Shown here piece after piece: positions 1 through 53,981 of a stretch of 64,000 nucleotides of DNA. Under the pieces are notes generated by a model. The model ran no database searches and was not told the origin of the DNA. It worked only from the letters and a program-made list of their open reading frames with translations. This stretch comes from Patescibacteria group bacterium (GTDB lineage Bacteria; Patescibacteriota; Doudnabacteria; UBA920), in assembly GCA_036726225.1 (NCBI GenBank), contig DAIMCS010000001.1, forward strand, positions 397,856-461,855. The letters run 5' to 3'. Position numbers and translations under genes: made by a program. Position 1 is the stretch's first letter, and the number at the start of each line of letters is the position of its first letter.

Positions 1-137
1 TGCTGCGAGAATCGGAAGACCGTGCCAGTAAAAAGATTTCTGGCGAGGTTGTAATTTCGGCTTGCAGAATTAACCGAAACACGGGAAAGCCAATACCCAC
101 CAGTTACAGAAAGCTCGGGGAGACATCTAATCAGGAT

Positions 138-1217
138 TTGCGGATCCAGGTAAAAAATGGATTCTGGCAAAGCCCGGATTGGGACTACCGATATTGGGCA
201 GACCAAGGTATTAACGGCCTTGTAATGGAGTTAGAAGGCGAGCAATGGTACACCAGTGTTTACCAGCTCGTTCGGCCGGAAGAACACAGAAAGAAAGTTT
301 TGGTCCCAACGAGGATATCAGAACCTCAAATTCAAACATCGGTGGATGATATAAATCCGGCGATAATGAAATATGCAGTCGCGTTCACCCTGTTAGACCA
401 AAACGGTGATCCGATTGCCGGAAAGGTTCCAGTTCAGTTCGGCATTACCAATGGTATGCTTGAATCTGATCCGGAATTTCCGGGGGTTTGTTTCGACAAC
501 GTCTCCATAAAGGGATTCGGACAAAAGTCAGAGTACAAAATTTTTCTGCCTCCAAAGACGCCAAGAATTTTGACGTTTGAAGGGCCGAAAAAGTCGACAT
601 CACCCACTATGAAGGCATTAACGGATCTGATATTTACTGGCAAGCCGCACCCTACCGACAGGACCAAAATGCTCTACACCGTTCTTTGGACGGTGGAGGG
701 CAGTAACAGCCAGGCCTTTAAACAGCCTACTGTTTTTCGGTCTTTTGGCGGCAATGTCCAGCCGATCACCGGCGACGACAAAGGCGTGTGTAGGGAGGAT
801 AATGTGGAGGTAACCAAGACGGAAACCTACACAGTGTTTATTCCCGGCGTAACAGGCGAAAACGTTCGCAAGAGCGCGGAGCTCCAAGGGCCGGCAAAGT
901 CTGCTCCTGAAGAACCTGAAGTTTTGGAAGTCGATTTGCCGCGCTGCGCTAATGCCAGTGGTTGGTTTATGGTTACGGTTCGTATTAAGAAGGGCGACAA
1001 ACAACAGCCGGGTCGAAGGTTCCGGCTAACTTCTGTTGAAGCCCTAACTGCGACCGGTTTGGATCTGACATCTTTAGGTCAAGGGAACTCATTCGAGCTC
1101 CCGACGGGCCCGGACGGTAGCCTGACTTTTCTGCTAACTTTTTGGAATCCGGTCAAGGCGGAGGTAGTTTTTAGCCTGCCGAACGGATCTCCACAACCGA
1201 AACTGCTAGTAAAATAA
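138..1217 (+). CDS. hypothetical protein, beta-rich, no recognisable domain; probably 5'-partial (frame open to position 3, ORF-track start is a TTG)
   Basis: Long ORF; the same frame has no stop back to the window edge; good RBS-spaced gene follows 16 nt downstream; higher GC than surrounding DNA. Confidence 0.5.
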   Translation: MRIQVKNGFWQSPDWDYRYWADQGINGLVMELEGEQWYTSVYQLVRPEEHRKKVLVPTRISEPQIQTSVDDINPAIMKYAVAFTLLDQNGDPIAGKVPVQFGITNGMLESDPEFPGVCFDNVSIKGFGQKSEYKIFLPPKTPRILTFEGPKKSTSPTMKALTDLIFTGKPHPTDRTKMLYTVLWTVEGSNSQAFKQPTVFRSFGGNVQPITGDDKGVCREDNVEVTKTETYTVFIPGVTGENVRKSAELQGPAKSAPEEPEVLEVDLPRCANASGWFMVTVRIKKGDKQQPGRRFRLTSVEALTATGLDLTSLGQGNSFELPTGPDGSLTFLLTFWNPVKAEVVFSLPNGSPQPKLLVK

Positions 1218-1232
1218 GAAAGGAAGAAACAG

Positions 1233-1922
1233 ATGTCTTGGATAAAAGAAGTTGCTGACGCAGTGCCCAAGCTTTTAGGGATGACTTCGGATCTTTTGCA
1301 TCTTGGGGGAGTTTTGACTAAGACCGGCGAGGGGGAAAGTGCAATATTTGCATTGGATCCCAAGGCCGTTCGAACCCATTTTCCAAGGATGAGTAAGACA
1401 GCCGAACATGAGTCACGTTGGACTGTAATTACGGCCAAACTCGAAGCAGCTCACCGACAGGCAATCTTGAGGCATTTTATGCCTAGCCTACAAGAGGAGC
1501 AACAGGCAGATTTAATTCAGTCTGCCGCAGACGCTGCTGTAATTACGCCCGACGGAGAAGAACAGGTGCTCGAGCATCTCCGCCACATTGCGGAGTTGCC
1601 AGTCCCTCAAGCTCAGATTGATTACGCCGATTCCCTCAACTGGATAAAAGGCGATCCTAACGAATATTGGATTGTCAAAATTCAGGGGTGGGCAGGCAGA
1701 CGTTTTGTCAATCTGCAGCAGATCGTCATCTGGCTCAACGACCCGGGACCGACCGGTTTTCGTGCAAAGGCTATGGCTGCAGAACCGGTTATTGGTGATG
1801 CTGCCGTAGAAATCCGCGCCGCATTAAACAACGCGGCGTTAACCCTCAACAACCGTTCCCAGCAAATAAATGACCGAGTTAATGGCTGGAGATCTTTGTG
1901 GCTGGGCAGGCTCATTCGGTAA
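1233..1922 (+). CDS. hypothetical protein (229 aa), no recognisable domain
   Basis: ORF with AAGGAAG RBS 6 nt upstream of ATG; tight operon spacing with neighbours. Confidence 0.55.
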   Translation: MSWIKEVADAVPKLLGMTSDLLHLGGVLTKTGEGESAIFALDPKAVRTHFPRMSKTAEHESRWTVITAKLEAAHRQAILRHFMPSLQEEQQADLIQSAADAAVITPDGEEQVLEHLRHIAELPVPQAQIDYADSLNWIKGDPNEYWIVKIQGWAGRRFVNLQQIVIWLNDPGPTGFRAKAMAAEPVIGDAAVEIRAALNNAALTLNNRSQQINDRVNGWRSLWLGRLIR

Positions 1923-1953
1923 ACAACCTTCACACCTTCACAGGAGAAAAGCT

Positions 1954-2856
1954 ATGAACTTTTTGATTGGCATCGGTATCGTGATTGCGTCCATCTTCGG
2001 CCTCGCGGTTCAAGTCGTGATCGGCGGGGCGTTGATAGCCTTCGGGCTCGTCAATATGGTTAATGCTTACCGGAGACAAATCAAGCTCTGGAGCATTTAC
2101 GCTTTCTGCTGGGTCACGCTGTATTTTGGCGGACACATATTGATTGCGTATCTCGATCCTGTCTACTTCAGCAACTGGACCACGGTCTGGACACTGTTCT
2201 TTCCCGCAGTCTCGGCTTTAGGCCTTTGGGTTTTTGGTGGATTTGCAGTGGACATGACTTTGATACTCAGCAAGTTGTCCGATCAAGAGTTCCACAGATT
2301 GATCCATACCCTAAGAGTCGAGACAGCTGACCAAAGACCGCCGCTCACCGAGCCGGTGCGGATTTTGGTACATTACTTCAAAACAACCGCCAATTATCCG
2401 ACAGAGATGCTTATTTTCATGTTGGAGTTATGGAGGCGACTGGGCAAAAGTGTGTTGCAATTTCTTCGTTTTGCCTTTATGGTTGGAGCTCTGGCTGGGT
2501 TGTATTTTCATTTCTTCCCACCGAGCAACAACTGGCGAATGTTCGGCGTTGCTGCTGTTGCCTTCTTCTGCTATTGTCTTGCCGGAATTCATTTTAACTG
2601 GACAATGTGGAGGAGAGTTTCAATTGTTGCAATGGCGGTGGCCACTTTAGCCGGCCAACTGACCCCATATGTCTCTAACCTGCCGACAATTACAATGCCA
2701 AGAGCGAACTTGTTAAACATTGGCTTGGCGTGTATTGCATTAGGGCTGTTTGGCAGCTATGTAGGCAGTTTCTTCAAATGGTTGTTTCCGGATGCTTCAA
2801 GTAGCGACAAACCTTCAACTTCCAACCCTCTTGTAGGAGAACATCATGAGCACTAG
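1954..2856 (+). CDS. polytopic integral membrane protein, unknown function (start taken at internal ATG with AGGAG RBS rather than ORF-track 1870)
   Basis: Multiple hydrophobic helices; AGGAGAAAAGCT-ATG at 1941-1956. Confidence 0.55.
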   Translation: MNFLIGIGIVIASIFGLAVQVVIGGALIAFGLVNMVNAYRRQIKLWSIYAFCWVTLYFGGHILIAYLDPVYFSNWTTVWTLFFPAVSALGLWVFGGFAVDMTLILSKLSDQEFHRLIHTLRVETADQRPPLTEPVRILVHYFKTTANYPTEMLIFMLELWRRLGKSVLQFLRFAFMVGALAGLYFHFFPPSNNWRMFGVAAVAFFCYCLAGIHFNWTMWRRVSIVAMAVATLAGQLTPYVSNLPTITMPRANLLNIGLACIALGLFGSYVGSFFKWLFPDASSSDKPSTSNPLVGEHHEH

Positions 2857-3463
2857 TACTGGTTCTGGAAAGAGAAAGTTTAAATGGATTTTGGTTCCGG
2901 TCGGAATTCTGCTGGTCCTGGTTTATCAATTGGGTATCGGCGGCCTTTTGCCCCGCGATAAGTGGGCAAAAAACGGAATGCGCTCCTTGGCCTTCAGCGT
3001 TTTTGAGGACCGGGTTGAGGATGCCAAAAAGGCTCCGACGTTCCACGAAAGCGCCCGCATTTACGACGGAGCAAAAGTGGAATTGAAAGACAACCAAAAC
3101 TCAATTGAGCAGTACCTTCCGCCTTGCCCTCAAGCCACCCGCTGGGAAGACAATTTAAAGCGGATGGATTTGACCGGTTGTTATGTCGGCAATACCATAT
3201 GGCCGCAGCTCAAAGATCCTTACGAAGTCCAGCGCTATTCCGTTACGTTTTACAAGTACGGCAAGGGCGCGCCCCAGACTGAGTTGGAAAACAAGTTTGG
3301 GAAGCAGCTCATAAGGATTGAGAGTAATACCGTCATCGAGGTGATGCGGCAAAGTCCCCACTTTGTCGCCAACGAAGTCAGTCCGGGAATATATGACCTG
3401 GGCGGAGAAGTAAAATGGACACACCTCGGAGATGCCGACGCTGTAACATTGGAGCTGCAATAA
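2846..3463 (+). CDS. hypothetical membrane-anchored protein (one N-terminal TM, soluble domain)
   Basis: ORF with GTAGGAGAAC RBS; 11-nt overlap with upstream gene (translational coupling). Confidence 0.55.
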   Translation: MSTSTGSGKRKFKWILVPVGILLVLVYQLGIGGLLPRDKWAKNGMRSLAFSVFEDRVEDAKKAPTFHESARIYDGAKVELKDNQNSIEQYLPPCPQATRWEDNLKRMDLTGCYVGNTIWPQLKDPYEVQRYSVTFYKYGKGAPQTELENKFGKQLIRIESNTVIEVMRQSPHFVANEVSPGIYDLGGEVKWTHLGDADAVTLELQ

Positions 3464-3570
3464 TGAGCTCCAAATACTTGACTATAATGAAAACGTATAG
3501 ACCCCGCCCACCCGCGAGATTTATACGACCACCTTGATGACGAAGACTCAACATCCTCGTCATCATTTCA

Positions 3571-3606
3571 AAAACCCCAAAGGCACAAAGCCTTTGGGGT
3601 TTTTGA
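3571..3606. terminator. bidirectional rho-independent terminator (AAAACCCCAAAGGC-ACAA-GCCTTTGGGGTTTTT)
   Basis: Perfect 12-bp GC-rich stem flanked by A-run and T-run between convergent genes. Confidence 0.8.
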
Positions 3607-3620
3607 ATGCTTAAATAAAT

Positions 3621-4754
3621 TTAAGACAAGTATCTTTCAATATGCGTAGAGCTTACGCTCTTGACCCTGGCTCTCAATATATTTTGCACTATTGCTACCA
3701 TACTAAAGGAAAGCAGGGCAATGACCAAACCTAAAATTGCATAAGTAATAGTTTTTTTTGCTTTCAGCACGCCTTCCTCATTACCCGCCGCTGCAACCAT
3801 TTGAAAACCTCCCACTATAATAAATATTACCGCCCAAATTCCAACAATGGCTAAAAAGCCCTGTATTATAATTAAAAAGACGTGGGTCAACTCGTCGTCT
3901 GGCAGAGGATTGTAAAGGCAATTTTTGGGGTCTACGCAGGGTTCTGAGTTTGGACTTCCAGGGCCGCCGCTTTGATTGGATGACACAAAAATTGTAACAA
4001 CTCCGTCATCTGCCAAACTAATTTGGTTTCCATTTGAGTCCCTTAATGTGACTGCAATAGTATTGTTTGCATTTTCGTTAAAACCATTTTCTTTGCTGAC
4101 CGTAATTGGGGTGGCTCCCGGGACAGTCAATTCCGAGCTTTCCCCGCCGTTTATTTTATACGCCCCACTAGAACCTGTACCGGCCCCATTTATAGAAATA
4201 TGTATGGTTTCCCCCATAGATGGTCTTCTATTGTCAACGCTGACTGTGGCGCCAGATACAGATCTGGTAGTTAAGTTGAATTCCGGAGTTTGCCAAAGAA
4301 CATTTTGAGAAGCAAAGGTGCCAAGGGCGCTGCCCAGTACACTCGGGTCAACTTGCTTAGAGTTACAATAAAATACTCCATAGTACCTGTTCCGTGTACC
4401 GCCGGTTAAGGAATTAAAATCATAGCCCATAGACGCTCCAGCGCCGCTTGCACGATATTCAATATTTGCGGCTTCCCCATTTATGGCATGCGCAACGGCA
4501 TGATAAATTTGTTTACCGCTTTCGCAGGTGGGCGCGGAATTAGTAGCGTTATTAATTACAAAAAACTGTAAGCTGACATTTGTATTTGGGTCTATACCGT
4601 TTGAATTTGCTGGCAGGCTGGAAATGAAAGTTGCACAAATGGAACCGTACTGACAATTTTGTTTAGTCAGAACGCTTGACTGCGCATAAGAGACAGGGCT
4701 TGAAAGTAAAAAAAGCCAAGAGGTAATAAAAATAATGTGTATAAATTTTACCAT
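3621..4754 (-). CDS. secreted protein with signal peptide, Gly/Ser/Asn-rich extracellular region and C-terminal double-TM hairpin (pilin-like / TrbC-VirB2-like topology)
   Basis: N-terminal signal (…SSPVSYAQ), C-terminal two hydrophobic helices separated by AAAGNEEG loop. Confidence 0.6.
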   Translation of the reverse strand: MVKFIHIIFITSWLFLLSSPVSYAQSSVLTKQNCQYGSICATFISSLPANSNGIDPNTNVSLQFFVINNATNSAPTCESGKQIYHAVAHAINGEAANIEYRASGAGASMGYDFNSLTGGTRNRYYGVFYCNSKQVDPSVLGSALGTFASQNVLWQTPEFNLTTRSVSGATVSVDNRRPSMGETIHISINGAGTGSSGAYKINGGESSELTVPGATPITVSKENGFNENANNTIAVTLRDSNGNQISLADDGVVTIFVSSNQSGGPGSPNSEPCVDPKNCLYNPLPDDELTHVFLIIIQGFLAIVGIWAVIFIIVGGFQMVAAAGNEEGVLKAKKTITYAILGLVIALLSFSMVAIVQNILRARVKSVSSTHIERYLS

Positions 4755-4767
4755 GGATTTTTATTTT

Positions 4768-4980
4768 TTAATTTTGATTAATTTTGTTTCGTAATTCTTC
4801 CAAGGCCGCATTTTCTAAGGCCTTGTTGGTTGCCTTATTCTCTGACTTTAATTTTTCAAATTCAAGGTTGAGCTTGAACGGTCTCGGTCTTTTGGCTTCT
4901 TTTGGTTTAGGGCTTTCTTGATTTAGGAAATGTCCTATACCTTTTTCTATTCTTAGTATATAAATGAGCTTAATTAGCAT
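4768..4980 (-). CDS. small lysine-rich hypothetical protein
   Basis: ORF only; co-directional with and 14 nt upstream of the pilin-like gene. Confidence 0.3.
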   Translation of the reverse strand: MLIKLIYILRIEKGIGHFLNQESPKPKEAKRPRPFKLNLEFEKLKSENKATNKALENAALEELRNKINQN

Positions 4981-41776: not shown

Positions 41777-44700
41777 ATGCAAAATTCTTTAGCAAAGAAA
41801 TTCTTTGCTGTAGGATCTGCGGTGGCAATGACTTTGTCCTTAGCCGCGCCGTTTGCAGCGCAAGCTGCAGCGCACGCTGCCGGGACTAACGTTTCCACCT
41901 CCGACGGTACAGTCTGGTTTATTACACCAGAAGGTACCCGCAGAGCCTACACTTCTGCCGGCGCTTTCCTTTCCTACGGCTTCAATTCTTGGAGCCAGGT
42001 GGTAGCTGCCAATGCAGATGACCTGAGCTTGCCTGCCGGATCGTTCATTCCTCCTCAGGACGGAACGGTTTTCTGCGCAACTGCCACAAAAGGCAGTGAC
42101 GTAGCAGGTGAATGCTCTTTGGTAACTGCCGGTATGAAAGCCGCTTTTACTTCAGCTGCTGTGTTTGCCGGTCTTGGCTTTAGCTTCGCTAACGCCGAGT
42201 ACGGTGATTCTTCTTTCTTAAATAAGACTGTAGACATCAACAGCTCAACCGAAGCCCACAAAACCGGCGTGCTTGTTAACAATAACGGCACTGTCCAGTT
42301 AGTTGGCGCTACCGGTTTGCTTGGTATTCCAAGCTTAGACGTCTTTAACACCTGGGGCTATTCCTTTGCCAATGTCGTTCCGGCTAACGCCGCCGACAAG
42401 GCAATGACCCAGACCGGTGTTATGCAAGCCAGAACACCTGGCCAATTAAACCCGGTATGGACAGTTGGAACTCAGCCTCCGCCTCCGGTTGGTTCGGTCA
42501 CGGTCTCTTTGGCCTCCGACAACCCGGCTTCTGGCAGCATTGTTGCCAGTTCTTCAGCTGTAACTTTGGCTAAATTCAACTTCTCCGGAAGCGGAACAGT
42601 CAGCCAAATCCAGCTTAAGAGAATTGGTGTCTCTGCAGACTCTGTTCTTTCTAACGTTTACCTCTACGACGGAGCTATGCGCTTAACTGATGCAGCTTCT
42701 GTCGGCGGTAGCAGCCTAATTAGCTTCAATACCCCAGGCGGTATTTTTACAGTTTCAGGCAGCAAGACCATTTCCGTGGTCGCTGAAATTGCAGGCACAG
42801 CCACTTCCGGCCAAACTGTAGGCGTTCAGCTTACCGGTTTTGCCGTAGCTGGTTATAGCTTGGGCAGCGCCAGTGTTTCCGGTAACTTACACACCGTTGC
42901 TTCAGTCAGCGATCTCGCTACTGTTGACTTCGGTACTGTTACCCCGACTGGCCAGACTTTGGACGCTGCTGCGGGCTTAGAAGTCTTCCGCAGTTCAGTA
43001 AGCATTGGCACCCGCGATGTAACCTTGTCCCGTTTGGCAGTTCGCCAAATTGGATCAGTCAACTACAGCGATATCAAGAACTTAGTCTTGAAGGTAGACG
43101 GTACAACTCTTGGTTCAGTAGCCGGTTTGGATGTAAATGGCTACGCCATGTTCTCCTTCTCACCTACTACTCTTAAGAGCGGCACTCGCATTATCACCAT
43201 TTTGGGTGACATTGTTGGCGGCGCTACCAGGACTTTCCAGTTCCAAATTCGCAACAAGGTTGATGTCGACTTTACTGACACTAACTACAACGTAGTGGTT
43301 TCTCCTGTTGACACCTTCCCTGTAGGTTCAGGTTCTGCTAACACCATTAGAGAAGGTAGCCTTATTATTCAAAAAGCTACCGACACTCCGTCTGGCAACG
43401 TAACCGATGGTGCTACCAATGTAAAATTGGCCAAGTTCACAGCTAACGCTTATGGTGAACCTATGAAGATCGAAACCTTAACTGCTGCTGCAAGCTCTTC
43501 TGACACCAGCGTTACTTCGCTCCGAAATGGTAAAATTATGATCAACGGGGTTCAGTATGGTTCTACAGCCACTTTGGCCCAGTGTCTTGCATGTACCACC
43601 ACCGGTGGTACCTCTTACACTTTGAACTATACTGTGCAGCCGGGTACTGCGGTTACTATCGAAGTTTATGCCGATATGTATGACAATGACATTGGTGGAA
43701 ACAACCTTTCCAACGGCGACACCGTTACTGCTTACTTAATTGTTGGTTCTAACAACGTCCAAAAGATGACCTCTTTGGGCTATGTCAACGTTCCGTCTTC
43801 CGCAGTTTCGGGTAACCCGATTACCAACGTAACCGGCAGCGTAACCTTTGCCAAGAACCAAACTTACTCTAACCACGCTATTCCTCTCCCACAAACTGGC
43901 TACAAGATTGGTGCCTTCACCTTAGTCGGTAGCACCTCGGAAGATGTGACTATCTCGAGCATCTCAGTTCGCGATGTTTCATCCACCAGCTTGACCAGCT
44001 TGTACAACATAAAAGTATTGGTTAATGGCAGCATATTTGGAGCTCAGGCTAGCAGCATCTCCGTTGGAGGTACTTCTACCTTCTCCAGTACTTTGAACCT
44101 TGCCCAAGGAATGACTGTTCCGGTCGAAGTTTATGCTGACATAAACTTACCAACAGCCGGCTATGCCGCCGACACCTTCGGTGCCCAGGTTTCGATTTCC
44201 GGTACAGCTGTTAATTCCAGCGCTTCCATTGCTGCTTCTGCAGCCGGTCAGACTTTGACCATTGGTAGCGCCACCTTAACTGCGGCTCAAGATCCGTCTA
44301 CTCCGGTTGCTGCCATTACGGCCGGCAATCAGACCAAGACTGCTGCTGCCTTTAAGTGGACTTCAGCTAACGACCAATTTACGATTTCTGAACTCGTAAT
44401 TAGTGTCGCGGCCGTCACCACTGTTCAAAATGTCATAATCAAGGATGGCAGCAACGTCATTGCTACTCAGCCAGGCGCTGCTTCTACCACCTTCAGCAAT
44501 TTGAGCATTTCAGTCCCTGCCAATGCCACCAAGATCTTAACTGTAGAATTACAGTTGGGCGGTGTGGGAACCGGCGCGGGTACTTCTGGTGAAAACGTCT
44601 TCGTCACCTTGCACAGCTACAAGAAAGCTCCGGCTTCATCCGGCACAGTCTCTACCACAACTGTTGGTAACATTTCGGGTAATGCCTTGTATGTTTACAA

Positions 44701-45217
44701 AGCTATTCCTACTATTACCACGGTTGCCTTACCCACCAGCATTCCGGTTGCCGGCACCAACACTTTGGCTAAGTTCACCCTTTCATCCGGTGGAACTGGC
44801 ACAATTGCTTGGAGCAAGATGATCTTCGCAATTAGCACATCTACAGGTGTTACCTTAAGCAGTCCTACAGTTTGGGATGCTGACACTAACACTCAGATTG
44901 CTGGTAACGCGACTTTCGCAACAACCAACGTAACCTTCTACACTACCAATGAACAACAAATTACCGGAGCCAAGACTTATGTCTTGAAAGGTACTTTGGG
45001 TGGAACAATTGGTACAGATGGTAACTACATTAGCACGTCTATAGCACAGCCTTCGAGCTTTGTTGCTCCGGCGATTGCTTCTGCTGCTACTGTCAGCTCT
45101 GCTACCTTCGTGTGGTCTGATGTCTCGGCCCAAAGCCATAGCTTCTCGACCGCCGACTGGAACAATGACTACTTAGTCAAGAATCTGCCAACAGATTCCC
45201 AGAGCTTGATTCAGTAA
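41777..45217 (+). CDS. giant (1146 aa) secreted Thr/Ser/Gly/Val/Ala-rich beta-repeat surface (S-layer-like / adhesin-like) protein
   Basis: Signal peptide ending AAQAAAHA; low-complexity beta-rich composition; strong RBS. Confidence 0.7.
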   Translation: MQNSLAKKFFAVGSAVAMTLSLAAPFAAQAAAHAAGTNVSTSDGTVWFITPEGTRRAYTSAGAFLSYGFNSWSQVVAANADDLSLPAGSFIPPQDGTVFCATATKGSDVAGECSLVTAGMKAAFTSAAVFAGLGFSFANAEYGDSSFLNKTVDINSSTEAHKTGVLVNNNGTVQLVGATGLLGIPSLDVFNTWGYSFANVVPANAADKAMTQTGVMQARTPGQLNPVWTVGTQPPPPVGSVTVSLASDNPASGSIVASSSAVTLAKFNFSGSGTVSQIQLKRIGVSADSVLSNVYLYDGAMRLTDAASVGGSSLISFNTPGGIFTVSGSKTISVVAEIAGTATSGQTVGVQLTGFAVAGYSLGSASVSGNLHTVASVSDLATVDFGTVTPTGQTLDAAAGLEVFRSSVSIGTRDVTLSRLAVRQIGSVNYSDIKNLVLKVDGTTLGSVAGLDVNGYAMFSFSPTTLKSGTRIITILGDIVGGATRTFQFQIRNKVDVDFTDTNYNVVVSPVDTFPVGSGSANTIREGSLIIQKATDTPSGNVTDGATNVKLAKFTANAYGEPMKIETLTAAASSSDTSVTSLRNGKIMINGVQYGSTATLAQCLACTTTGGTSYTLNYTVQPGTAVTIEVYADMYDNDIGGNNLSNGDTVTAYLIVGSNNVQKMTSLGYVNVPSSAVSGNPITNVTGSVTFAKNQTYSNHAIPLPQTGYKIGAFTLVGSTSEDVTISSISVRDVSSTSLTSLYNIKVLVNGSIFGAQASSISVGGTSTFSSTLNLAQGMTVPVEVYADINLPTAGYAADTFGAQVSISGTAVNSSASIAASAAGQTLTIGSATLTAAQDPSTPVAAITAGNQTKTAAAFKWTSANDQFTISELVISVAAVTTVQNVIIKDGSNVIATQPGAASTTFSNLSISVPANATKILTVELQLGGVGTGAGTSGENVFVTLHSYKKAPASSGTVSTTTVGNISGNALYVYKAIPTITTVALPTSIPVAGTNTLAKFTLSSGGTGTIAWSKMIFAISTSTGVTLSSPTVWDADTNTQIAGNATFATTNVTFYTTNEQQITGAKTYVLKGTLGGTIGTDGNYISTSIAQPSSFVAPAIASAATVSSATFVWSDVSAQSHSFSTADWNNDYLVKNLPTDSQSLIQ

Positions 45218-46081: not shown

Positions 46082-48304
46082 ATGACAAACTCTTTTGACA
46101 AAAAAATTTGGTATGTGTTTTTTGCCTTAGTTTTAGCTTCGCTCTTAACCCCGTTTTGGGTATTTTCCCAATTGTTGTTTCCGTTTATTACCAGCAAAGC
46201 TCTGTATTTCCGTTTTATGGTTGAGGCCGCGTTGCCTTTTTATATTTACTTAATGCTTGTTTCCCCGAAGCTCCGCCCCAAAATAAAACAACCTTTGAAT
46301 TTGGCGGTTTTAATTTTTGTGTTAATTAATATTGTTACTTCTTTTTCCGGCGTGAATGTAGACAGGAGCCTGTGGGGGACATTTGAACGCATGGGCGGGG
46401 TTTGGTATCTGCTCCATTTAGGCCTACTGTTTTTTTATGTCCAGGCTATTGGCCAGGCAGGGGGAAAGTATTTGAAGATTTTTTTGCAAAGCTTTATAGG
46501 CGTGGCAGTGGCTGTGAGTTTCAACGGGCTTTTAGGCAAAATTGGCATTGTCACTTTCTTTCCTGACCCTTCTTTGCCTGCCCGTGTTTCTTCTACTTTT
46601 GGCAACCCCATATTTTTCGCGAGCTTCCTTATTATACCTTTGTTTTTGGCCGTGTATTTTGCCGTGCAGGAAGAGAGGCGGGGGATGAAAATTATTTATT
46701 GGATAGCCGCCGCTTTACAGCTTTTGGGAATTTATTTTTCCGGTACGCGCGGAGCAGTTGTCGGTTTAATTTTGGGCCTGTTTGCAGCTTTGGTCGTTTA
46801 TGTCATCCTGACAAAAAAATCTAAATTCAGGCAGTACAGCTTAGTCATTTTGGGAGTATTGTTAATTGTTGCCGGAGGCCTGTACTTTAACCAAAAAAAA
46901 TTATCCCCCAGCTCTACACTTTACCGCATTGTCCATTTACGGGACAGCAATACTGAAGCTAGATTAATTCAGTGGCGTATGGCTTTGCAGGGCGTGAAAA
47001 AGCATTTATTGTTGGGTGTTGGCCCGGAAAATTATTATGTGGTATTCGATGAGTTCTACAATCCTGAAATGTACAAGTACGACCCTTCCTGGTTTGACAA
47101 GCCCCATAATTATCAGCTGGAAATTTTAGTTACAAATGGCATACTAGGACTGCTTGCTTACATCGCTATGTTCGTATTTAGTTTATACGCTTTATGGAAA
47201 GCGTATAAAGCTAATTTGTTGGGCCTGCTTGAAGGATGCGTACTTTTTGCCGGGGTGGTTGCTTACCAGGTACAAAATTTAACCGTTTTTGATACGGTTT
47301 CGGCAAGCGTGGCATTTTATGCTTTTATGGGTTTTGCCGCGTTCCTCTGGTACGAAAGTTATGCCCCTTCAAAACAAGAAACACAAAATAAATTAAGCGC
47401 CGGCCCGGCTCCCAAGGTTATTTTTGCCGTGCTTTGTCTGCTGCTGATATTTGTGGAATACGTTTCCAACTTTGCTTCATATCAGGCTTCCAAGCGCGTA
47501 AACTTGGGTTATTTTTACACATCTTACGACCCAAAAACAGCGGGGAATTATTTTACAAAGGCTTTAGAGGTTAAATATAATTTGGACAAGCGGGACACGG
47601 CAAATTATTATTCTGACTTTACAGCTAGGCTGGTCAATAATGCGGATGCCAAGGTGGATGATAAGTTTAAGCTTGAACATATGCAAAAAGCCCGCGAGAA
47701 CCAAAAAGCTATTGCGGAGAAAGTTCAAAATGACCCTTTGTTATGGATGAGACTGGCTATAGGCGAAATGAACCTGGCGCTTTTGCAGGGTCAAAATTTT
47801 GACCCTGCAAAAGAAGCCATTAGTAAGGCTGTTAATTTGGCTCCCAACAGAGTAGAGTTATTGCAATTATGGGTGCAGTGTTATGGTCTTTTGAAAGATT
47901 GGAAAAATTTGGTAATTGTTGCAGAAAAAATTGTTGAACTAAACCCCGGAAAACCTGACTTGCGCTGGCAATTAGCCATGGGATATTTTTTAAATGGGCA
48001 GCTGGAAGAGGCGGTTTTAGCAGGAGACGTCGCTGTTGCCCAGGGTTTTAAGTTTAATCAATTGCAGCAATTCGCCTGGTATATTCAGTATTATGAGGCA
48101 AAGAAGGACTGGCAAAAAGTAATTCCGCTTCTAGAGCAAGCTGTAACCTTGGAGTCCAACGAGATTGGTTTATACATAGATCTGGCAAAAGCTTACGCCA
48201 AAATAGGCGACAAAGAGCACGCTATTCTTTTAGCTCGGCAAGTCCAGCAGTCAGACCCCTCCCAGAGGGCAGCTATGGAAGAATTTATCAACTCACTCAA
48301 ATAG
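46082..48304 (+). CDS. Wzy_C-family (O-antigen ligase / PglL-PilO-like) polytopic membrane protein with C-terminal TPR domain, paralogue 1
   Basis: Wzy_C hallmark loop …FSGTRGAVVGL…, 10+ TM helices, C-terminal TPR array. Confidence 0.7.
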   Translation: MTNSFDKKIWYVFFALVLASLLTPFWVFSQLLFPFITSKALYFRFMVEAALPFYIYLMLVSPKLRPKIKQPLNLAVLIFVLINIVTSFSGVNVDRSLWGTFERMGGVWYLLHLGLLFFYVQAIGQAGGKYLKIFLQSFIGVAVAVSFNGLLGKIGIVTFFPDPSLPARVSSTFGNPIFFASFLIIPLFLAVYFAVQEERRGMKIIYWIAAALQLLGIYFSGTRGAVVGLILGLFAALVVYVILTKKSKFRQYSLVILGVLLIVAGGLYFNQKKLSPSSTLYRIVHLRDSNTEARLIQWRMALQGVKKHLLLGVGPENYYVVFDEFYNPEMYKYDPSWFDKPHNYQLEILVTNGILGLLAYIAMFVFSLYALWKAYKANLLGLLEGCVLFAGVVAYQVQNLTVFDTVSASVAFYAFMGFAAFLWYESYAPSKQETQNKLSAGPAPKVIFAVLCLLLIFVEYVSNFASYQASKRVNLGYFYTSYDPKTAGNYFTKALEVKYNLDKRDTANYYSDFTARLVNNADAKVDDKFKLEHMQKARENQKAIAEKVQNDPLLWMRLAIGEMNLALLQGQNFDPAKEAISKAVNLAPNRVELLQLWVQCYGLLKDWKNLVIVAEKIVELNPGKPDLRWQLAMGYFLNGQLEEAVLAGDVAVAQGFKFNQLQQFAWYIQYYEAKKDWQKVIPLLEQAVTLESNEIGLYIDLAKAYAKIGDKEHAILLARQVQQSDPSQRAAMEEFINSLK

Positions 48305-48314
48305 AAAGCAAATT

Positions 48315-49883
48315 ATGAAGATAAGGGAATTTTTTACAAAGAAGAGAATTATCTGGTCCGCAATAATTTTGTTGGTATTGTTTGTAATTGGTTATTTTAT
48401 TTTCAGGCCAAAAGATAACTCCGGCAATATACAGACTGAAATAGTTAAGAAACAAGATTTGAAGTCAACTGTCCTTGCAACCGGACAGGTGGTTTCGGGC
48501 ACAGATTTAAATTTAAGTTTTAAAACCAGCGGTTTTGTGCAAAGCGTAAAAGTTACGGAAGGCAGCAAAGTTAAGACCGGCGATGTGCTGGCAACTTTAG
48601 ACCAAAAAGATGCGTTAGCGAGTTTAACTTCGGCAAGAGGCGCACTGGCCCAGGCGCAGGCCAACTACAATAAAGTTTTAGCCGGCGCTTCTAACGAGGA
48701 AATTATAGTGGCTCAAAAAGCTGTTGACGCGGCCCAGGTGACTTTAGATACCGCCAAGGTCAATTTAAAAAATACCCAAAGCCAGCAGGAAACCGCTGTT
48801 AGTAACGCTTATTCTGCCCTTTTGAATTCTACTTTGGAAGCAGTGCCTAGCGCCGGGAATGCCGGGACCGGAATTGCTACTGTAAGCGGAACCTATACTG
48901 GAGCAGAGCAGGGTACTTATACCCTATCTCTCTACATTTCAGGTAATGGCATGATGTTCCAGCTTAGCGGTTTAGAAACTTCAAGCGGTGAATACAAAAG
49001 TTTTCCGGTACCTTTAGGAAGCAGAGGCTTATTTATAGAATTTTCGGGGACCTCCTATGCAAACGATCAATGGGTAGTGAAAATCCCAAACACCAGCGCC
49101 AGCACTTACGTTGCTAACTATAATGCCTACCAGTCATCCCTTAAAACCAGGCAGTCTTCAGTGGATGCCGCCCAGGCGCAGCTCAACAGCGCGCAGGTGG
49201 CTTTAGACCAGGCTATAGCAGCCTTAAACCTAAAAAAAGCCCAGGCCAGGCCTGCAGATTTACAAGTGGCCCAAGCCCAGGTACTCTCGGCTCAAGGACA
49301 GGTCCAGGCTGCGCAGTCGAACCTGGAAAATACAATTATGCGCGCGCCAACGGGCGGCACAATAACCAAAGTAGATGCTAAAGTGGGGCAGCAAGCCACA
49401 GCTATGCAGGCCTTAATAGTTTTGCAGGACGTTGGGAATTTGCATGTGGAGGCAAATATTAGCGAGGCTAATATTTCTTCCATAATTTCAGAGCAGCAGG
49501 TGGAAGTAACTTTCGACGCTTTAGGCGTGGACAGGAAATTTATAGCCAAAGTCCAAACCATAGACCCGGCCTCCACCGTAGTTTCCGGCGTGGTGAATTA
49601 TAAAGTTAAGGTTTCCTTGGAAAAATTGGAGCAAATTAAACCCGGTATGACCGCTAACTTAAATATTTTAACCGGTGAAAAAAGCGGCGTGTTAGCCGTG
49701 CCGCAGCGCGCGGTAATAAGCCGCGACGGAAAAAAGTTTGTCCGTGTAATTACAGACACTAAAAAGAAAGCCTACACCGAAGCAGAAGTTACCACCGGTA
49801 TGGAAGCGGACGGGGGGCTAGTGGAAATTGTAAGCGGAGTTTCAGAGGGCGCTGAGGTTGTGACCTTCATAAGATCTAACTAA
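48315..49883 (+). CDS. HlyD/RND-adaptor family periplasmic membrane-fusion protein (no partner transporter in window)
   Basis: N-terminal TM, biotinyl-lipoyl-like hairpin, long coiled coil, beta-barrel IMRAPTGGTITKV. Confidence 0.7.
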   Translation: MKIREFFTKKRIIWSAIILLVLFVIGYFIFRPKDNSGNIQTEIVKKQDLKSTVLATGQVVSGTDLNLSFKTSGFVQSVKVTEGSKVKTGDVLATLDQKDALASLTSARGALAQAQANYNKVLAGASNEEIIVAQKAVDAAQVTLDTAKVNLKNTQSQQETAVSNAYSALLNSTLEAVPSAGNAGTGIATVSGTYTGAEQGTYTLSLYISGNGMMFQLSGLETSSGEYKSFPVPLGSRGLFIEFSGTSYANDQWVVKIPNTSASTYVANYNAYQSSLKTRQSSVDAAQAQLNSAQVALDQAIAALNLKKAQARPADLQVAQAQVLSAQGQVQAAQSNLENTIMRAPTGGTITKVDAKVGQQATAMQALIVLQDVGNLHVEANISEANISSIISEQQVEVTFDALGVDRKFIAKVQTIDPASTVVSGVVNYKVKVSLEKLEQIKPGMTANLNILTGEKSGVLAVPQRAVISRDGKKFVRVITDTKKKAYTEAEVTTGMEADGGLVEIVSGVSEGAEVVTFIRSN

Positions 49884-49895
49884 ATTCATAGGATT

Positions 49896-51695
49896 ATGAA
49901 AAAGTTTTATTCACTATTTAAGTGTTACATATTTGTTTGCATTTTATTTAGCTTTCCTTTTAACATTGCTTTTAGTCAAGAGCTCGTTTTTAAGGATCCA
50001 TTTTTTAAGGATCAATATTATTTGACAAATATTAATGCTATTGAGGCTTGGCAACTCCAATCGAACGCAGCAAGCGTACTTGTGGCAGTTTTAGATGACG
50101 GTGTCTACGAAAAGCATCTTGATTTGGGTATGCAGTTTTGGCGTAACCAAAAGGAGTTAAACAATGGCATTGACGATGACAATAACGGTTACGTTGATGA
50201 TTTACAAGGGTGGGATTTTATACAAAATTCCAACGATATGAGGGTGTACGGAAATCACGGTACAATGGTTGCTGGCATTTTGACGGCCTTGCCAGATGAC
50301 TATGCTATAGTCGGTATTTCTCGGAATACTCAAATAATGCCATTATTAATTTGTGGAAATAGCGGCGAATGCTATCTTGATTTATTGCCAAAGGCCATTC
50401 GCTATGCTACAGATAATGGGGCTAATATTATTAATATTAGTTTAGGTGGGAGATACACAGATACGGTTGATGAAGCTATTAGGTATGCTTATAGCAAAGG
50501 AGTGGTTATTGTGGCTGCTGCAGGCAATCTTAATAACGAAACAAATTTTGGACAGGATTTAAGCGCCAATCCTCGTTCTCCGGTGTGTAATGATAACGGC
50601 CAGGATATGGTGTTGGGGGTTTCAGCGGTGGACAAGGAAAATAAAATGGTAAATTGGGCTGCTTATGGCAATTGTGTGGACGTCGTTGCGCCAGGGGTAG
50701 GTATTATGTCAACGGCTATGTATAGCGGTTTGGACCATGACCAAGGGTCTGGTACCTCATTTGCTGCTCCTATGGTAACTGCCCAAGCAGCTTTGTTAAA
50801 GGCGAAGTATCCGTCAATGACTAACCGACAAATTATAGATTCCATAAAACAAACCGCTAATCACGATAGTTCCTACAACGGGCTTTTGGGCAGCGGCTTA
50901 ATTGATGTTTATAAATCCTTAAGCCAGCCAGTTTTTAGTGCCCCGCAAAATGGTGTAAGCCAGGTTAATAGCAGTACCCATCCGGCTGGCACTGTTGTAT
51001 TAGGCAAAGATAAAAGGACGGTTTACATTATTGGAAACGGTGAAAAACGTGGTTTTGCCACTCCTGAGGAATATAATTCACATGGTTTTGTATTTTCAGA
51101 TATCGTAGTGGCGAACGATTTCGATTTGGGTCTGACTGACGGGGCTGTTGTTCCTTTTGCAGACGGAACCTTGGTATTGGATGCTTCAGATGGCAGAACC
51201 ATTTACATGATAGACAATAAAACGAAAAGGGGTTTTGTCAGCGCGGAGGTTTTTGAGCAACTTGGGTATACCTTTTCACAAGCCGTTTTGGGCAAGCTTG
51301 AAGGTTATTCCTTGGGTACACCTATAATATCCTCCAGCGAGCCTCACCCAGCCGGGGCAGTGGTCTTAGACGGTAGTTCACATTTTAAAATATTTGCAAA
51401 TGGAAAAAAACGGATTTTCAGTCAGGAGGTGCTAAACTCATGGCATTGGGATGAAACCCGTATTGTCAATGCTAACGTAGGCGATAAAAATTTACCGGAA
51501 ATTGCTATTATGCCCTTTCGTGATGGTACTCTCATTAAGACAAAAAATGGGGGTATATATATTGTTTCTAACGGGGACCTTAGGCCCTTTGCATCAATGG
51601 AAGTTTTTAACAAGCTCGGGTATAAAACTCAAAATATCGTAAACATATCAGACAGTGAATTTTATTTTTATAAGGTAGGTTCGGTAATAAATTAA
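49896..51695 (+). CDS. secreted subtilisin-like serine protease (S8) with four C-terminal ~50-aa repeats
   Basis: Signal peptide; catalytic triad motifs VAVLDDGV, HGTMVAGIL, GTSFAAPMV. Confidence 0.85.
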   Translation: MKKFYSLFKCYIFVCILFSFPFNIAFSQELVFKDPFFKDQYYLTNINAIEAWQLQSNAASVLVAVLDDGVYEKHLDLGMQFWRNQKELNNGIDDDNNGYVDDLQGWDFIQNSNDMRVYGNHGTMVAGILTALPDDYAIVGISRNTQIMPLLICGNSGECYLDLLPKAIRYATDNGANIINISLGGRYTDTVDEAIRYAYSKGVVIVAAAGNLNNETNFGQDLSANPRSPVCNDNGQDMVLGVSAVDKENKMVNWAAYGNCVDVVAPGVGIMSTAMYSGLDHDQGSGTSFAAPMVTAQAALLKAKYPSMTNRQIIDSIKQTANHDSSYNGLLGSGLIDVYKSLSQPVFSAPQNGVSQVNSSTHPAGTVVLGKDKRTVYIIGNGEKRGFATPEEYNSHGFVFSDIVVANDFDLGLTDGAVVPFADGTLVLDASDGRTIYMIDNKTKRGFVSAEVFEQLGYTFSQAVLGKLEGYSLGTPIISSSEPHPAGAVVLDGSSHFKIFANGKKRIFSQEVLNSWHWDETRIVNANVGDKNLPEIAIMPFRDGTLIKTKNGGIYIVSNGDLRPFASMEVFNKLGYKTQNIVNISDSEFYFYKVGSVIN

Positions 51696-51731
51696 GATAA
51701 AATTGGGGGCATAGCATATTCCTGACCAAGT

Positions 51732-53981
51732 ATGAAATTTTTAAAAGCCATATTTTTTGTTTTAGTCTGTGTTTCCGTAACCGCGGCTTTTTGGGTGTTT
51801 AAAGATTTGCTTTTTCCTTTTGTTACCAGCAAGGCTTTTTTCTTTAGGATTGCCATAGAATTAGCTTTCCCTCTCTATGCTTACTTTTTGGTGGTAGACG
51901 GAAGGCTTCGCCCGAATTTAAAAAATCCTTTAAATTTGGCCATGCTGGCGTTTATGTTGCTTAATTTTGCTTCGGCTTTTTCCGGGGTTAACTTAACGCG
52001 CAGCCTGTGGGGTAACTTTGAACGTATGGGCGGAGCTTACTATATTGCCCATTTAGTAGCTTTGTATTTTTACATTTTGTGTCTGGGGCAAATGGGCAGT
52101 TGGTATTTGCAATGGTTTTTAAAGGTTTTGTTGTGGGTAGGTATTGTGGTTGCGGGAAACGGAATTTTTGGCTGGCTGGGTTGGCCAACCCTGGTTTTAG
52201 ACCCAACCCTTCCCACCAGGGTTTCCAGCACTTTGGGTAACCCCATTTACCTGGGCAGTTTTTTAATTATCCCTTTTTTCCTAAGTTTGTTTTTTGGGCA
52301 TCAGACCGACAGCGGCATTAAACGCGCGGGCTATTATTTTTTGGGTTTTTTATGTTTGCTTGGAATTTTCCTAAGCGGCACGCGCGGTGCGGCGGTCGGG
52401 CTTTTATCCGCGAGTTTTTTAGGCGCGCTAATTTATTTGTTTTTCAATCCAAGTAAAAAAATTAAAATTTACGGTTTTGCTTTAGTCGGTATTTGTGTCA
52501 TTGCCGCCGGTTTGTTATTTGTAAACCATGAAAAATTACCGCAAGGCTCCACGGTTCGCAGGTTATTTAATTTAAATGACAGCAACACCCAAAGCCGTTT
52601 GCTGCAGTGGAAAGTGGCTTTAAGAGGTTTTGAAGACCGGCCGCTTTTGGGCACAGGCCCGGAAAATTATTATATTGTCGCCAACCAGTACTACGACCCC
52701 AAAATTGCGGAGTTCGACCCAAGCTGGTTTGACAAGCCGCACAATTATCTGTTGGAGATTTTGGTTACCGACGGCATACTCGGCTTTGCCGCGTATATGG
52801 GCATTTTAATTTTCTTGGTTTTTGCCTTATACAAAGGTTTTAAGTCAGGTTTGTATGGGTTGTTAGAATTTTGTTTTTTGCTCACCGCATTGCTTGCTTA
52901 CCAAATCCAAAATTTGTTCGTATTCGACACCGTTCCTACGAGCCTGATGTTTTTTGCCTTTGCCGGATTTGGCGGTTACATTTGGCAGATAAGCAGGCAG
53001 CAAGAGTCAGGCAAGCCAAAAATTTTTGTGGTTAGGGAAAACCGGGCTTTTGGAGTTAGCGTCTTAGTGGTTTGTTTGCTTTTAATGCTTTATGCCGAAT
53101 ATGCGACCAATTTGCTTCCTATGCGTATTTCTAAAAATGTAAACTACGGTTACGCTTATGCTTTTGCTGACTTAAACAAAGCGCATTCCTATTTCCAAAC
53201 TGCCGTCTCCTTGCCGTTCAATTTTGACGAAGCGGAAACAGCCAGCAAATTTGCCGAATTCGCCGCTAACATCGCTAGGTCTTCCACAGAACAAAACAGG
53301 GCTTTAGCCCTTAAAATTTTGGACGAATCAACGGTGTATTTAGAAAACGTTACCAAAGAGCAGGTCGACAGCCCTGTGCTTTGGCAAAGGCTTTCTATGG
53401 CTTACCTGTTTAAGTCAACGCAGGTGGGGGACAAAATAATTGTTCACCCAAAGGCGGAAGAGGCTATAAAAAAGGCTATAGGCTTGGCGCCCAGCCGTGA
53501 CGAAGCGAGCTTAACTTTGGCGCAAATAAGAAGCCTTGAGGGTAAGTTTGCGGAAGCAGAAACTATATTGCTAAAAGCCCTACAAAACATACCCAGTGAC
53601 AGAAGCGCCCGGCTGCAAATAATAAATTTATACCGGGCACAAAATAAAATTGACCTGGCCGTTGCCAAAATGGAAGAGCTTTTTAAACAGGGTTATAAAT
53701 TTTCCCAATACCAGGAAGTTAAATGGCTGGTAGGCTACTATGCAGACAAAAAAGAATTCGACAGAGCCATAGACCTGCAAAGGAAGGCAGGGGAGACGGA
53801 GCCTGGAAACCTTTTGGTCTTTATAGATTTAGCCAAGCTGTATGCGCTTGCCGGTAAATATGGTGAGGCAATAAACCTGGCGCAGAGCATTATAAAATTC
53901 GAACCCAGCAGACAAAAAGAAATGCAGGAATTTATAGATTCGCTTCCTAAAACCGCTTCCTCAACACCTGCTTCCAACTAA
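51732..53981 (+). CDS. Wzy_C-family membrane protein with C-terminal TPR domain, paralogue 2
   Basis: Collinear with 46082-48304 (LFPFVTSKAFFFRI vs LFPFITSKALYFRF; SGTRGAAVGL loop). Confidence 0.7.
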   Translation: MKFLKAIFFVLVCVSVTAAFWVFKDLLFPFVTSKAFFFRIAIELAFPLYAYFLVVDGRLRPNLKNPLNLAMLAFMLLNFASAFSGVNLTRSLWGNFERMGGAYYIAHLVALYFYILCLGQMGSWYLQWFLKVLLWVGIVVAGNGIFGWLGWPTLVLDPTLPTRVSSTLGNPIYLGSFLIIPFFLSLFFGHQTDSGIKRAGYYFLGFLCLLGIFLSGTRGAAVGLLSASFLGALIYLFFNPSKKIKIYGFALVGICVIAAGLLFVNHEKLPQGSTVRRLFNLNDSNTQSRLLQWKVALRGFEDRPLLGTGPENYYIVANQYYDPKIAEFDPSWFDKPHNYLLEILVTDGILGFAAYMGILIFLVFALYKGFKSGLYGLLEFCFLLTALLAYQIQNLFVFDTVPTSLMFFAFAGFGGYIWQISRQQESGKPKIFVVRENRAFGVSVLVVCLLLMLYAEYATNLLPMRISKNVNYGYAYAFADLNKAHSYFQTAVSLPFNFDEAETASKFAEFAANIARSSTEQNRALALKILDESTVYLENVTKEQVDSPVLWQRLSMAYLFKSTQVGDKIIVHPKAEEAIKKAIGLAPSRDEASLTLAQIRSLEGKFAEAETILLKALQNIPSDRSARLQIINLYRAQNKIDLAVAKMEELFKQGYKFSQYQEVKWLVGYYADKKEFDRAIDLQRKAGETEPGNLLVFIDLAKLYALAGKYGEAINLAQSIIKFEPSRQKEMQEFIDSLPKTASSTPASN

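Follow-up and report, generated by a model that had tools for sequence, protein, structure and literature searches.

A lineage-restricted four-gene membrane-associated cassette beside a convergent VirB2-like pilin gene in the ftsA-ftsZ junction of a Doudnabacteria genome

Results

Organization of the g5-g8 operon

The DNA analyzed here is a stretch of 64,000 nt from a Patescibacteria group bacterium of the Doudnabacteria (GenBank assembly GCA_036726225.1, contig DAIMCS010000001.1, positions 397,856 to 461,855 of the forward strand), hereafter the window, and our subject is the set of four co-directional plus-strand genes that spans its positions 1-3463, together with the pilin gene that converges on it. 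The four genes, delineated from the open reading frame (ORF) listing and the raw sequence, are named g5-g8, and four further genes of the same genomic island lie upstream. A preliminary description of this DNA, drawn from its letters alone, had singled out four coupled plus-strand ORFs at the window edge; all four are present, and the first of them (ORF1, our g5), whose frame ends at 1217 and is open at position 1, was completed by extending upstream as that description had proposed. An exact-protein look-up places the locus on 20 contigs, one of them a 496-kb Joint Genome Institute (JGI) contig (L001) that has 0 mismatches to the window over the shared 11.9 kb. On L001, g5 begins at a GTG codon 55 nt before window position 1, 8 nt after an AGGAGG and with a stop codon directly upstream, so that window positions 1..1217 hold all but its first 19 codons and the full protein measures 423 aa. 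It is followed by g6 (1233..1922, 229 aa), g7 (1954..2856, 300 aa) and g8 (2846..3463, 205 aa), all on the plus strand. The junctions are a 15-nt gap (g5/g6), a 31-nt gap (g6/g7) and an 11-nt overlap (g7/g8), and every one of the four starts is preceded by an AGGAG-type ribosome-binding site, as had been reported; the spacing first given, gaps or overlaps of 11-16 nt, holds for the first and third junctions and fails for the second.

The operon is bounded by its own expression signals. The 418-nt spacer 5' of g5 carries a terminator-like hairpin of the preceding gene, then a promoter and then a leader; by sequence and folding, the stretch from that hairpin to a second hairpin in the leader occupies L001 8402-8713, equivalent to window -366 to -55. 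The promoter is a perfect consensus, TTGACA-17 nt-TATAAT (L001 8469-8497), and the leader, ~215 nt long, contains a long stem-loop of nearly 100 nt (z = -6.4) as well as the second, GC-rich hairpin 5' of the g5 ribosome-binding site. Compared with Rfam, the leader and island gave only a sub-threshold microRNA-precursor match on the opposite strand, and a riboswitch or known small RNA was rejected for want of a family match there; candidate roles for the leader are those of attenuator, processing site or small RNA. At the other end, an inverted repeat at 3567-3607 has 18-nt arms (3567-3584 and 3590-3607) that are 100% complementary, a 5-nt loop and A5/T5 flanks, and folds with a dG of -29.9 kcal/mol (z = -7.5 vs shuffles). 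This hairpin, recovered by an inverted-repeat search and missed by a simple terminator scan, is the perfect terminator of the preliminary description, and it can act as a bidirectional intrinsic terminator that serves both g5-g8 and the convergent gene at 3621-4754. Since it has its own promoter, structured leader and terminator, g5-g8 is a self-contained unit and a genuine operon.

None of the four proteins falls into a recognized family, in agreement with the first reading of the sequence: Pfam, NCBIfam, PHROGs and PADLOC gave no significant family-level match, and the sequences of the PDB gave none. The only PADLOC match for any of them was that of g6 to PbeC (E = 0.033, 10.9 bits), and the defense-system models of PADLOC-DB 2.0 yielded nothing significant. 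Searches of 50,697 phage and 72,556 plasmid records by tblastn came back empty, scans of IMG/VR were likewise negative, and the FtsA-anchored flanks of 80 related species yielded no g5-g8 homolog. A prophage or plasmid origin was rejected on the PHROGs, phage, plasmid and IMG/VR negatives. All-against-all BLASTP revealed no paralogy within the island. An exhaustive HMMER scan of 1.84e9 representatives recovered 21 relatives of g5 at E <= 1e-3, seven of them with E < 1e-30. These genuine relatives had been missed by an earlier word-indexed search, which returned g5 alone, and a word-indexed search with concatenated g6+g7+g8 is uninformative, as it missed even three proteins known to be present. 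The g5 alignment found no relative in a metagenome contig collection, a negative of little weight given that the collection evidently lacks the source samples. Because g5 has 21 relatives and its AlphaFold2 (AF2) model reaches a predicted local distance difference test score (pLDDT) of 93.3 from only 22 sequences, we regard g5-g8 as real, constrained genes; spurious ORFs were rejected on this conservation and the pLDDT 93 model.

A pilin gene converges on the operon

Immediately beyond the shared terminator, on the minus strand, lies the gene of a 377-aa surface protein (3621..4754) that constitutes the fifth conserved member of the module. In its product a two-helix, VirB2-like pilin domain forms the C-terminus, and a signal peptide and a variable ectodomain of ~270 aa are also present. 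This neighbor, and no protein of the operon, scores as a VirB2/TrbC-type pilin, with 34.1 bits against PF18895 (T4SS_pilin; cutoff 26.6), and it also matches NF045849 of NCBIfam weakly. In all eight loci where the downstream side of a homologous cassette is visible (8/8), a convergent PF18895-type pilin gene of one subfamily lies 3' of it, and the C-terminal ~90 aa of these pilins are 53-72% identical across loci. Since this is the only pilin-like gene among the ~60 genes of the 64-kb window, chance adjacency of cassette and pilin is negligible. The tie to a pilin-like gene on the other strand, suspected in the preliminary description, is thus borne out in differing genomic contexts, and the partnership of cassette and pilin is new.

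Ten of the contigs with the locus are clonal (g5-g8, ftsZ and nrdA show 0 differences among them), and strain-level dN/dS (the ratio of non-synonymous to synonymous rates) was abandoned for g5-g8, these 0 differences giving no signal. Among these ten otherwise clonal contigs, the pilin gene of L009 carries 1 synonymous and 4 non-synonymous changes, which hints at diversifying change in the pilin surface protein.

Beyond the pilin gene is a 70-aa ORF (4768..4980, minus strand) whose membership in the module is uncertain: it has no homolog in the other loci examined, and the P0010 contig has a 101-aa gene at the equivalent position. On two of the homologous loci the pilin gene is followed by a shared pair of proteins of 655-697 aa and 92-102 aa (L098 7541-9914 and L099 15346-17629). 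A similar-sized pair, 554 aa and a cut 74 aa, follows it on the P0016 contig, where the likeness is by size alone. The 655-697 and 92-102 aa pair is absent from the window's genome at this site, and ftsZ stands there instead.

The cassette recurs with conserved order and topology

Every sufficiently flanked g5 relative shows the same gene order (slots 1 to 4): a member of the g5 family, then a soluble protein (216-245 aa), a polytopic membrane protein (204-468 aa) and a bitopic protein (192-258 aa). This four-gene order, whose conservation had been proposed as a check, recurs in 10 other loci or contigs at 21-56% protein identity and in at least four genomic contexts. The arrangements are 430 + 224 + 213 + 225 aa in L092, 420 + 228 + 308 + 213 aa on the P0010 contig, 439 + 232 + 380 + 192 aa in L096 (of L095-097), 436 + 216 + 370 + 227 aa in L098, 423 + 232 + 252 + 210 aa on the P0016 contig, 437 + 218 + 204 + 195 aa in L101 and 325 + 245 + 259 + 251 aa in L102/103; L099 has 440 + 236 + 589 aa, slots 3 and 4 being fused, and L100 (291 + 228 + 468 + 209 aa) has a form of g5 with a cold-shock domain (CSD). 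Homology was confirmed for g5, for g6 in six loci (alignment A7) and for g8 in five loci. The outer flanks of the cassette differ and include the ftsA-ftsZ island, DnaJ, FtsH/EamA and others. Taken with the pilin gene, these loci show a lineage-restricted five-gene module with a membrane core.

Within the module, g5 is a chain of four predicted Ig-like domains without a signal peptide. The AF2 model from the 22-sequence alignment places four tandem Ig-like beta-sandwiches along the chain, and Foldseek comparison of this model with PDB and viral libraries returned only generic arrays of bacterial Ig-like (BIg), macroglobulin (MG) and FN3 domains, the best matches being 4p99 (BIg repeats), E. 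coli alpha-2-macroglobulin and the MG domains of complement C3. Big_1 is matched by 4/22 members of the g5 family (best E = 1e-7), and in Pfam the window's g5 itself has no match to it (PF02369). The conserved signature of the family is the C-terminal domain (approximately residues 325-423), and the N-terminal parts vary; in 4/22 members (P0018, P0022, P0023 and P0028; L100 8407-9282) an N-terminal CSD is fused to the conserved C-terminal beta-sandwich, an unusual pairing. Hydropathy and signal analysis found neither a signal peptide nor a transmembrane (TM) segment in g5, and no aligned member of the family has a signal peptide. The absence of a signal peptide across the aligned family and the CSD fusion in 4/22 members argue that the g5 family probably works in the cytoplasm. 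The first protein had initially been taken for a large, possibly secreted one, a description that does not fit a 423-aa protein with no signal peptide and with relatives that carry a cytoplasmic cold-shock domain.

The second protein, g6, is soluble by hydropathy (no TM) and ends in a basic, amphipathic tail, GWRSLWLGRLIR, which appears to resemble an FtsA-type amphipathic membrane anchor. It has no Pfam or PDB sequence match, and its homologs occupy the same cassette position in L092, L099, L100, L101 and L102; alignment A7 puts their identity at 21-48%, and by BLAST the local identity to the slot-2 protein of L102 reaches 56%. A single-sequence AF2 model of g6 was rejected as unusable (pLDDT 39). 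The third protein, g7, whose ATG is preceded by AGGAG, has at least 6 hydrophobic segments and a ~55-residue cytoplasmic loop. A polytopic slot-3 protein is present in all homologous cassettes; its position is kept and its sequence poorly conserved, the subgroups having no detectable homology to one another (hhalign probability <7%), and hhalign between the two slot-2 subgroups likewise stayed <7%. Pfam gave no match for g7 at E <= 1 and none for three slot-3 homologs at E <= 0.05, VirB6/TrbL included. The fourth protein, g8, has an N-terminal TM segment (residues 15-33) and an ectodomain of ~170 aa with a conserved cysteine pair, C94/C112; C94, P95, W100 and C112 are invariant in the family alignment A4, and the g8 subgroups are linked by hhalign at 97.6% probability. 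Its topology and size would suit a VirB8-like bitopic protein with an NTF2-like periplasmic domain, and no sequence match was found for g8 in Pfam or the PDB, even with a 4-sequence profile. At least two unrelated kinds of slot-4 ectodomain occur in the cassettes. The C-terminal domain within the L099 fusion, a single 589-aa protein, matches the separate slot-4 protein of L102, and this fusion, together with the 11-nt overlap of the genes in the window, argues for coupling of g7 and g8. Together, g5, g6, g8 and the slot-3 membrane protein define four new protein families.

The operon lies in a hypervariable ftsA-ftsZ junction

The g5-g8 operon is the 3' half of the plus-strand genes of an island of ~11.5 kb, in which eight plus-strand genes and then two minus-strand genes are placed between ftsA and ftsZ. 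The FtsA is ~80% identical to that of Candidatus Doudnabacteria metagenome-assembled genomes, and the rest of the window consists of housekeeping genes, including GroEL, RelA/SpoT, ComEC, MetK and transketolase. Few bacterial gene pairs are as highly conserved as ftsA-ftsZ, and among the FtsA-anchored loci of 80 species the two genes are 3-518 nt apart in 59/62 loci that yielded ftsZ. Within the closest Doudnabacteria subclade (FtsA >=71% identical), three loci have ftsZ displaced by 5.4-9.9 kb, and in ten it does not occur within the 5-10 kb of available downstream flank; the pair is adjacent in the subclade members L024 and L028 and in 57 more distant species. The side upstream of ftsA is syntenic in 18 close relatives and the content downstream is different in each. 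This hypervariable junction (5.4 to >10 kb; L012-L028, L055) holds a mosaic of recurrent, mostly unannotated families, among them PIN and AbiEii toxins, DUF5715, and DUF5663 paired with giant proteins (up to 1,664 aa). No integrase or transposase domain was detected by Pfam in the island genes, and no tRNA-type attachment signature or flanking direct repeat was seen at the island.

Base composition gives no sign of foreign origin. Per gene, g5-g8 have a GC content of 0.48-0.51 and a third-position GC content (GC3) of 0.50-0.59, against a baseline of GC 0.44 (standard deviation 0.05) and GC3 0.45 (0.08) for 60 ORFs of the window and its upstream flank (73 kb). Both values lie within about 1-1.5 standard deviations of the window genes, and 9 of ~50 non-island genes have GC >= 0.48. 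Because the flanking core genes ftsA (0.507) and ftsZ (0.490) are equally GC-rich, the shift is not evidence of foreign DNA. The preliminary description had called these genes visibly more GC-rich than the ftsZ-nrd region that follows; the rise is genuine and modest, about one standard deviation upward, shared by ftsA and ftsZ and within gene-to-gene variance over the 73 kb.

The third gene of the island (L001 5551-7293, plus strand, ~1.5-3.2 kb upstream of window position 1) encodes a 580-aa GTPase of the FtsZ/tubulin family and stands with three genes for signal-peptide/TM proteins between ftsA and the canonical ftsZ. It is very divergent (Pfam Tubulin PF00091, E = 0.003; PDB FtsZ, E = 1e-5) and retains T1-, T4- and T7-like motifs (GDGGGN, GQGGTGLG and VDYMDL), with an uncharacterized C-terminal half of ~300 aa; no Tubulin_2 match was obtained, and there is no vWA protein in the L001 island. 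Two relatives were found: P0002, with 42% identity and encoded just after ftsA, and a 616-aa protein of L022 that passes the Pfam Tubulin cutoff. An alignment of this FtsZ-like protein retrieved no relative from genome or metagenome contig collections, a result of little weight for the same reason as with g5. Divergent extra FtsZ copies have been noted previously in some genomes of the Candidate Phyla Radiation (CPR) (PMC9871819).

Two further regions of the window were recorded apart from the module. A 1,146-aa ORF at 41777-45217 (plus strand) matches no Pfam family at E <= 1e-4, has an unusually high second-position GC of 0.525 and lies in the sole stretch of the window with negative GC skew. 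At 46082-53981 (plus strand), two paralogous Wzy_C (O-antigen ligase-like) and TPR membrane proteins of 740 and 749 aa flank an HlyD-like membrane-fusion protein and a subtilase, which may represent a surface-polymer or export cluster.

Discussion

We interpret g5-g8 and the convergent pilin gene as a lineage-restricted, pilin-associated envelope module that is neither a canonical secretion system nor the product of demonstrable recent transfer, a reading to which we assign a probability of roughly one half. It is favored because linkage to the pilin is the most constant feature of the cassette and because the parts that vary, the slot-4 and pilin ectodomains, face outward while the conserved parts, the g5 C-terminal domain and g6, face inward. 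We acknowledge that several points weigh against this interpretation. Its functional side is read from gene context and topology only, and g5-g8 have no match to any component of a type IV secretion system (T4SS), a pilus or another machine. The module lacks an energizing ATPase, and the pilin gene, being on the opposite strand, is not co-transcribed with the operon. The slot-3 proteins and one slot-2 subgroup are kept across loci in position and topology only, and in two loci, L099 and L100, genes for PP2C, vWA, Zn-ribbon and Ser/Thr-kinase proteins stand directly ahead of the cassette, an arrangement that points to signaling and not to handling of the pilin. All homologous loci are metagenomic, with taxonomy taken from synteny for L099 and L100 only. 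In addition, tandem Ig-like domains are usually extracytoplasmic, a poor fit with a cytoplasmic g5.

Under the envelope-module interpretation, g7 and g8 would associate in the membrane as a complex whose exposed ectodomain is disulfide-bonded and evolves fast. The basic amphipathic tail of g6 would dock that protein on the inner face of the membrane, where g5 would bind through its conserved C-terminal domain. Such a complex might insert, anchor, organize or signal from the pilin-anchored surface protein. Patescibacteria depend on host-cell contact, and in an episymbiotic CPR cell a pilin-anchored surface protein would most plausibly serve this contact.

The known system closest to hand is the T4SS. 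VirB2-like pilins are abundant in Patescibacteria, some are essential and their mechanism is unexplained; a survey in 2025 recorded them in 1,948 assemblies, in only 1,135 of which they lie near virB4, so that orphan pilin loci are common and ~40% of pilin-bearing assemblies encode the pilin away from any VirB4 gene (PMC12102498). The module resembles the loci of that survey in having a PF18895 VirB2-like pilin gene, and a polytopic g7 beside a bitopic g8 with an ectodomain offers a superficial parallel to VirB6 and VirB8. It differs in that the pilin has a large N-terminal ectodomain of ~270 aa and in that searches of the cassette detect no homolog of VirB3, VirB4, VirB6, VirB8 or a coupling protein. 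No VirB4/VirD4/TraG-type domain was found in the eight island genes or the ten largest other window ORFs, and the survey lists no component like g5-g8 (PMC12102498). By the tests run, the cassette is not a member of any T4SS class, the pilin alone scoring as a T4SS component. The early suggestion of a surface or secretion module is therefore upheld as to the pilin, through gene order, and gains nothing from an ATPase, a VirB6/VirB8 sequence match or a VirB4/VirD4-type domain. A bolder version of the envelope-module interpretation, which we put forward tentatively as possible rather than probable, is that the cassette is an undescribed ATPase-less envelope apparatus dedicated to the VirB2-like pilin-anchored surface protein, with g7 and g8 as analogues of VirB6 and VirB8 and g5 plus g6 as a cytoplasmic platform. 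VirB6 and VirB8 components are largely undetectable in Patescibacteria.

The tandem domains of g5 recall a second class of known proteins, the Big_1/BIg and macroglobulin arrays of invasin/intimin, the MpIBP adhesin and alpha-2-macroglobulin, in that four beta-sandwiches are strung together. The similarity is confined to single domains, with a whole-chain TM-score of <0.2 and ~10% identity; unlike those arrays, g5 lacks a signal peptide, an anchor, a thioester and any other functional domain, and some relatives begin with a CSD.

Signaling is the most probable of the rival readings, and we consider it unlikely. In this scheme the cassette would be a trans-membrane signaling or conflict module that serves a system of Ser/Thr-kinase, PP2C and vWA proteins as its sensor or output arm; the g7/g8 pair would sense the outside, g5 and g6 would be cytoplasmic adaptors or effectors with swappable N-termini and the pilin would be a mere co-traveler. 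The swapping of the N-terminal part of g5 between Ig-like arrays and CSD around a constant C-terminal domain would suit it, as would the unrelated kinds of slot-4 ectodomain. It draws further on the two loci in which PP2C, vWA, Zn-ribbon and membrane Ser/Thr-kinase genes stand on the same strand downstream of ftsA and just ahead of the cassette (L099 4846-9999 and L100 2908-8381, gaps of 1 and 25 nt). Neither the window locus nor the called genes around the L092, L098, L101, L102 and P0010 cassettes, however, include a kinase, phosphatase or vWA gene, and a kinase linkage of 2/10 is less constant than a pilin linkage of 8/8. The lack of a PADLOC hit also speaks against this scheme.

A further idea, raised in the preliminary description, is that of a horizontally acquired island, here taken as recently acquired foreign DNA, mobile-element or defense-island cargo without a stable role. 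The site is indeed hypervariable: the 11.5 kb between ftsA and ftsZ are wholly different between close relatives whose upstream side is syntenic, toxin-antitoxin genes sit at the same spot in relatives, and the mean GC of the island is ~0.50 vs 0.43 for the window. Against recent acquisition, the GC and GC3 of g5-g8 are ordinary and equal to those of ftsA and ftsZ, no mobility gene, attachment signature or repeat accompanies them, and phage, plasmid, viral-contig and PADLOC searches were empty. Cassette relatives that are 21-56% identical and share the same CPR-type pilin point instead to long residence in one lineage, and we judge this explanation quite improbable.

The position of the cassette inside the ftsA-ftsZ junction in L001, L099 and L100, the FtsZ-like paralog 1.4 kb upstream and the putative FtsA-type anchor of g6 might suggest a cell-division accessory that remodels the envelope at the septum, but this is very improbable: the cassette also stands beside DnaJ and FtsH/EamA with no ftsA or ftsZ among the called genes there, it and the FtsZ-like gene are not conserved together (L022 has only the gene, L099 and L100 only the cassette), a terminator and a separate promoter set the operon apart from the FtsZ-like genes, the junction, a variable hotspot in general, takes up PIN and AbiEii toxin genes as well, and the close relatives L024 and L028, with ftsA-ftsZ adjacent and no cassette homolog in the fetched flanks, imply normal division without it. 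The island nevertheless bears comparison with the FtsZl1 operons, whose neighborhoods contain vWA-domain proteins, protein kinases and many membrane proteins and for which a role in membrane remodeling has been proposed (Makarova and Koonin 2010, PMC2875224). The wider island likewise unites a very divergent FtsZ-family GTPase with lineage-specific membrane proteins of no recognized family, and the cassettes of L099 and L100 follow vWA, PP2C and kinase genes. The differences are that the FtsZ-like protein matches PF00091 weakly and Tubulin_2 not at all, that the L001 island has no vWA partner, that no single locus holds all three of FtsZ-like gene, vWA/kinase genes and g5-g8 cassette, and that g5-g8 is a separate transcription unit with its own promoter.

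In summary, the value of these findings lies in well-defined hypotheses rather than in a solved mechanism. One Doudnabacteria subclade breaks the ftsA-ftsZ order, its junction now being a hotspot that holds 5 to >10 kb of mosaic genes, a second, very divergent FtsZ-family GTPase among them. Under the dedicated-apparatus proposal, the location of such modules in this island, next to the extra FtsZ-like GTPase, would link surface and host-contact functions with the division site. Four conserved partners beside one pilin subfamily are concrete candidates for surface-protein handling, and, if the dedicated-apparatus proposal is true, the orphan pilins of CPR bacteria, encoded away from virB4, would have partner machinery of their own.

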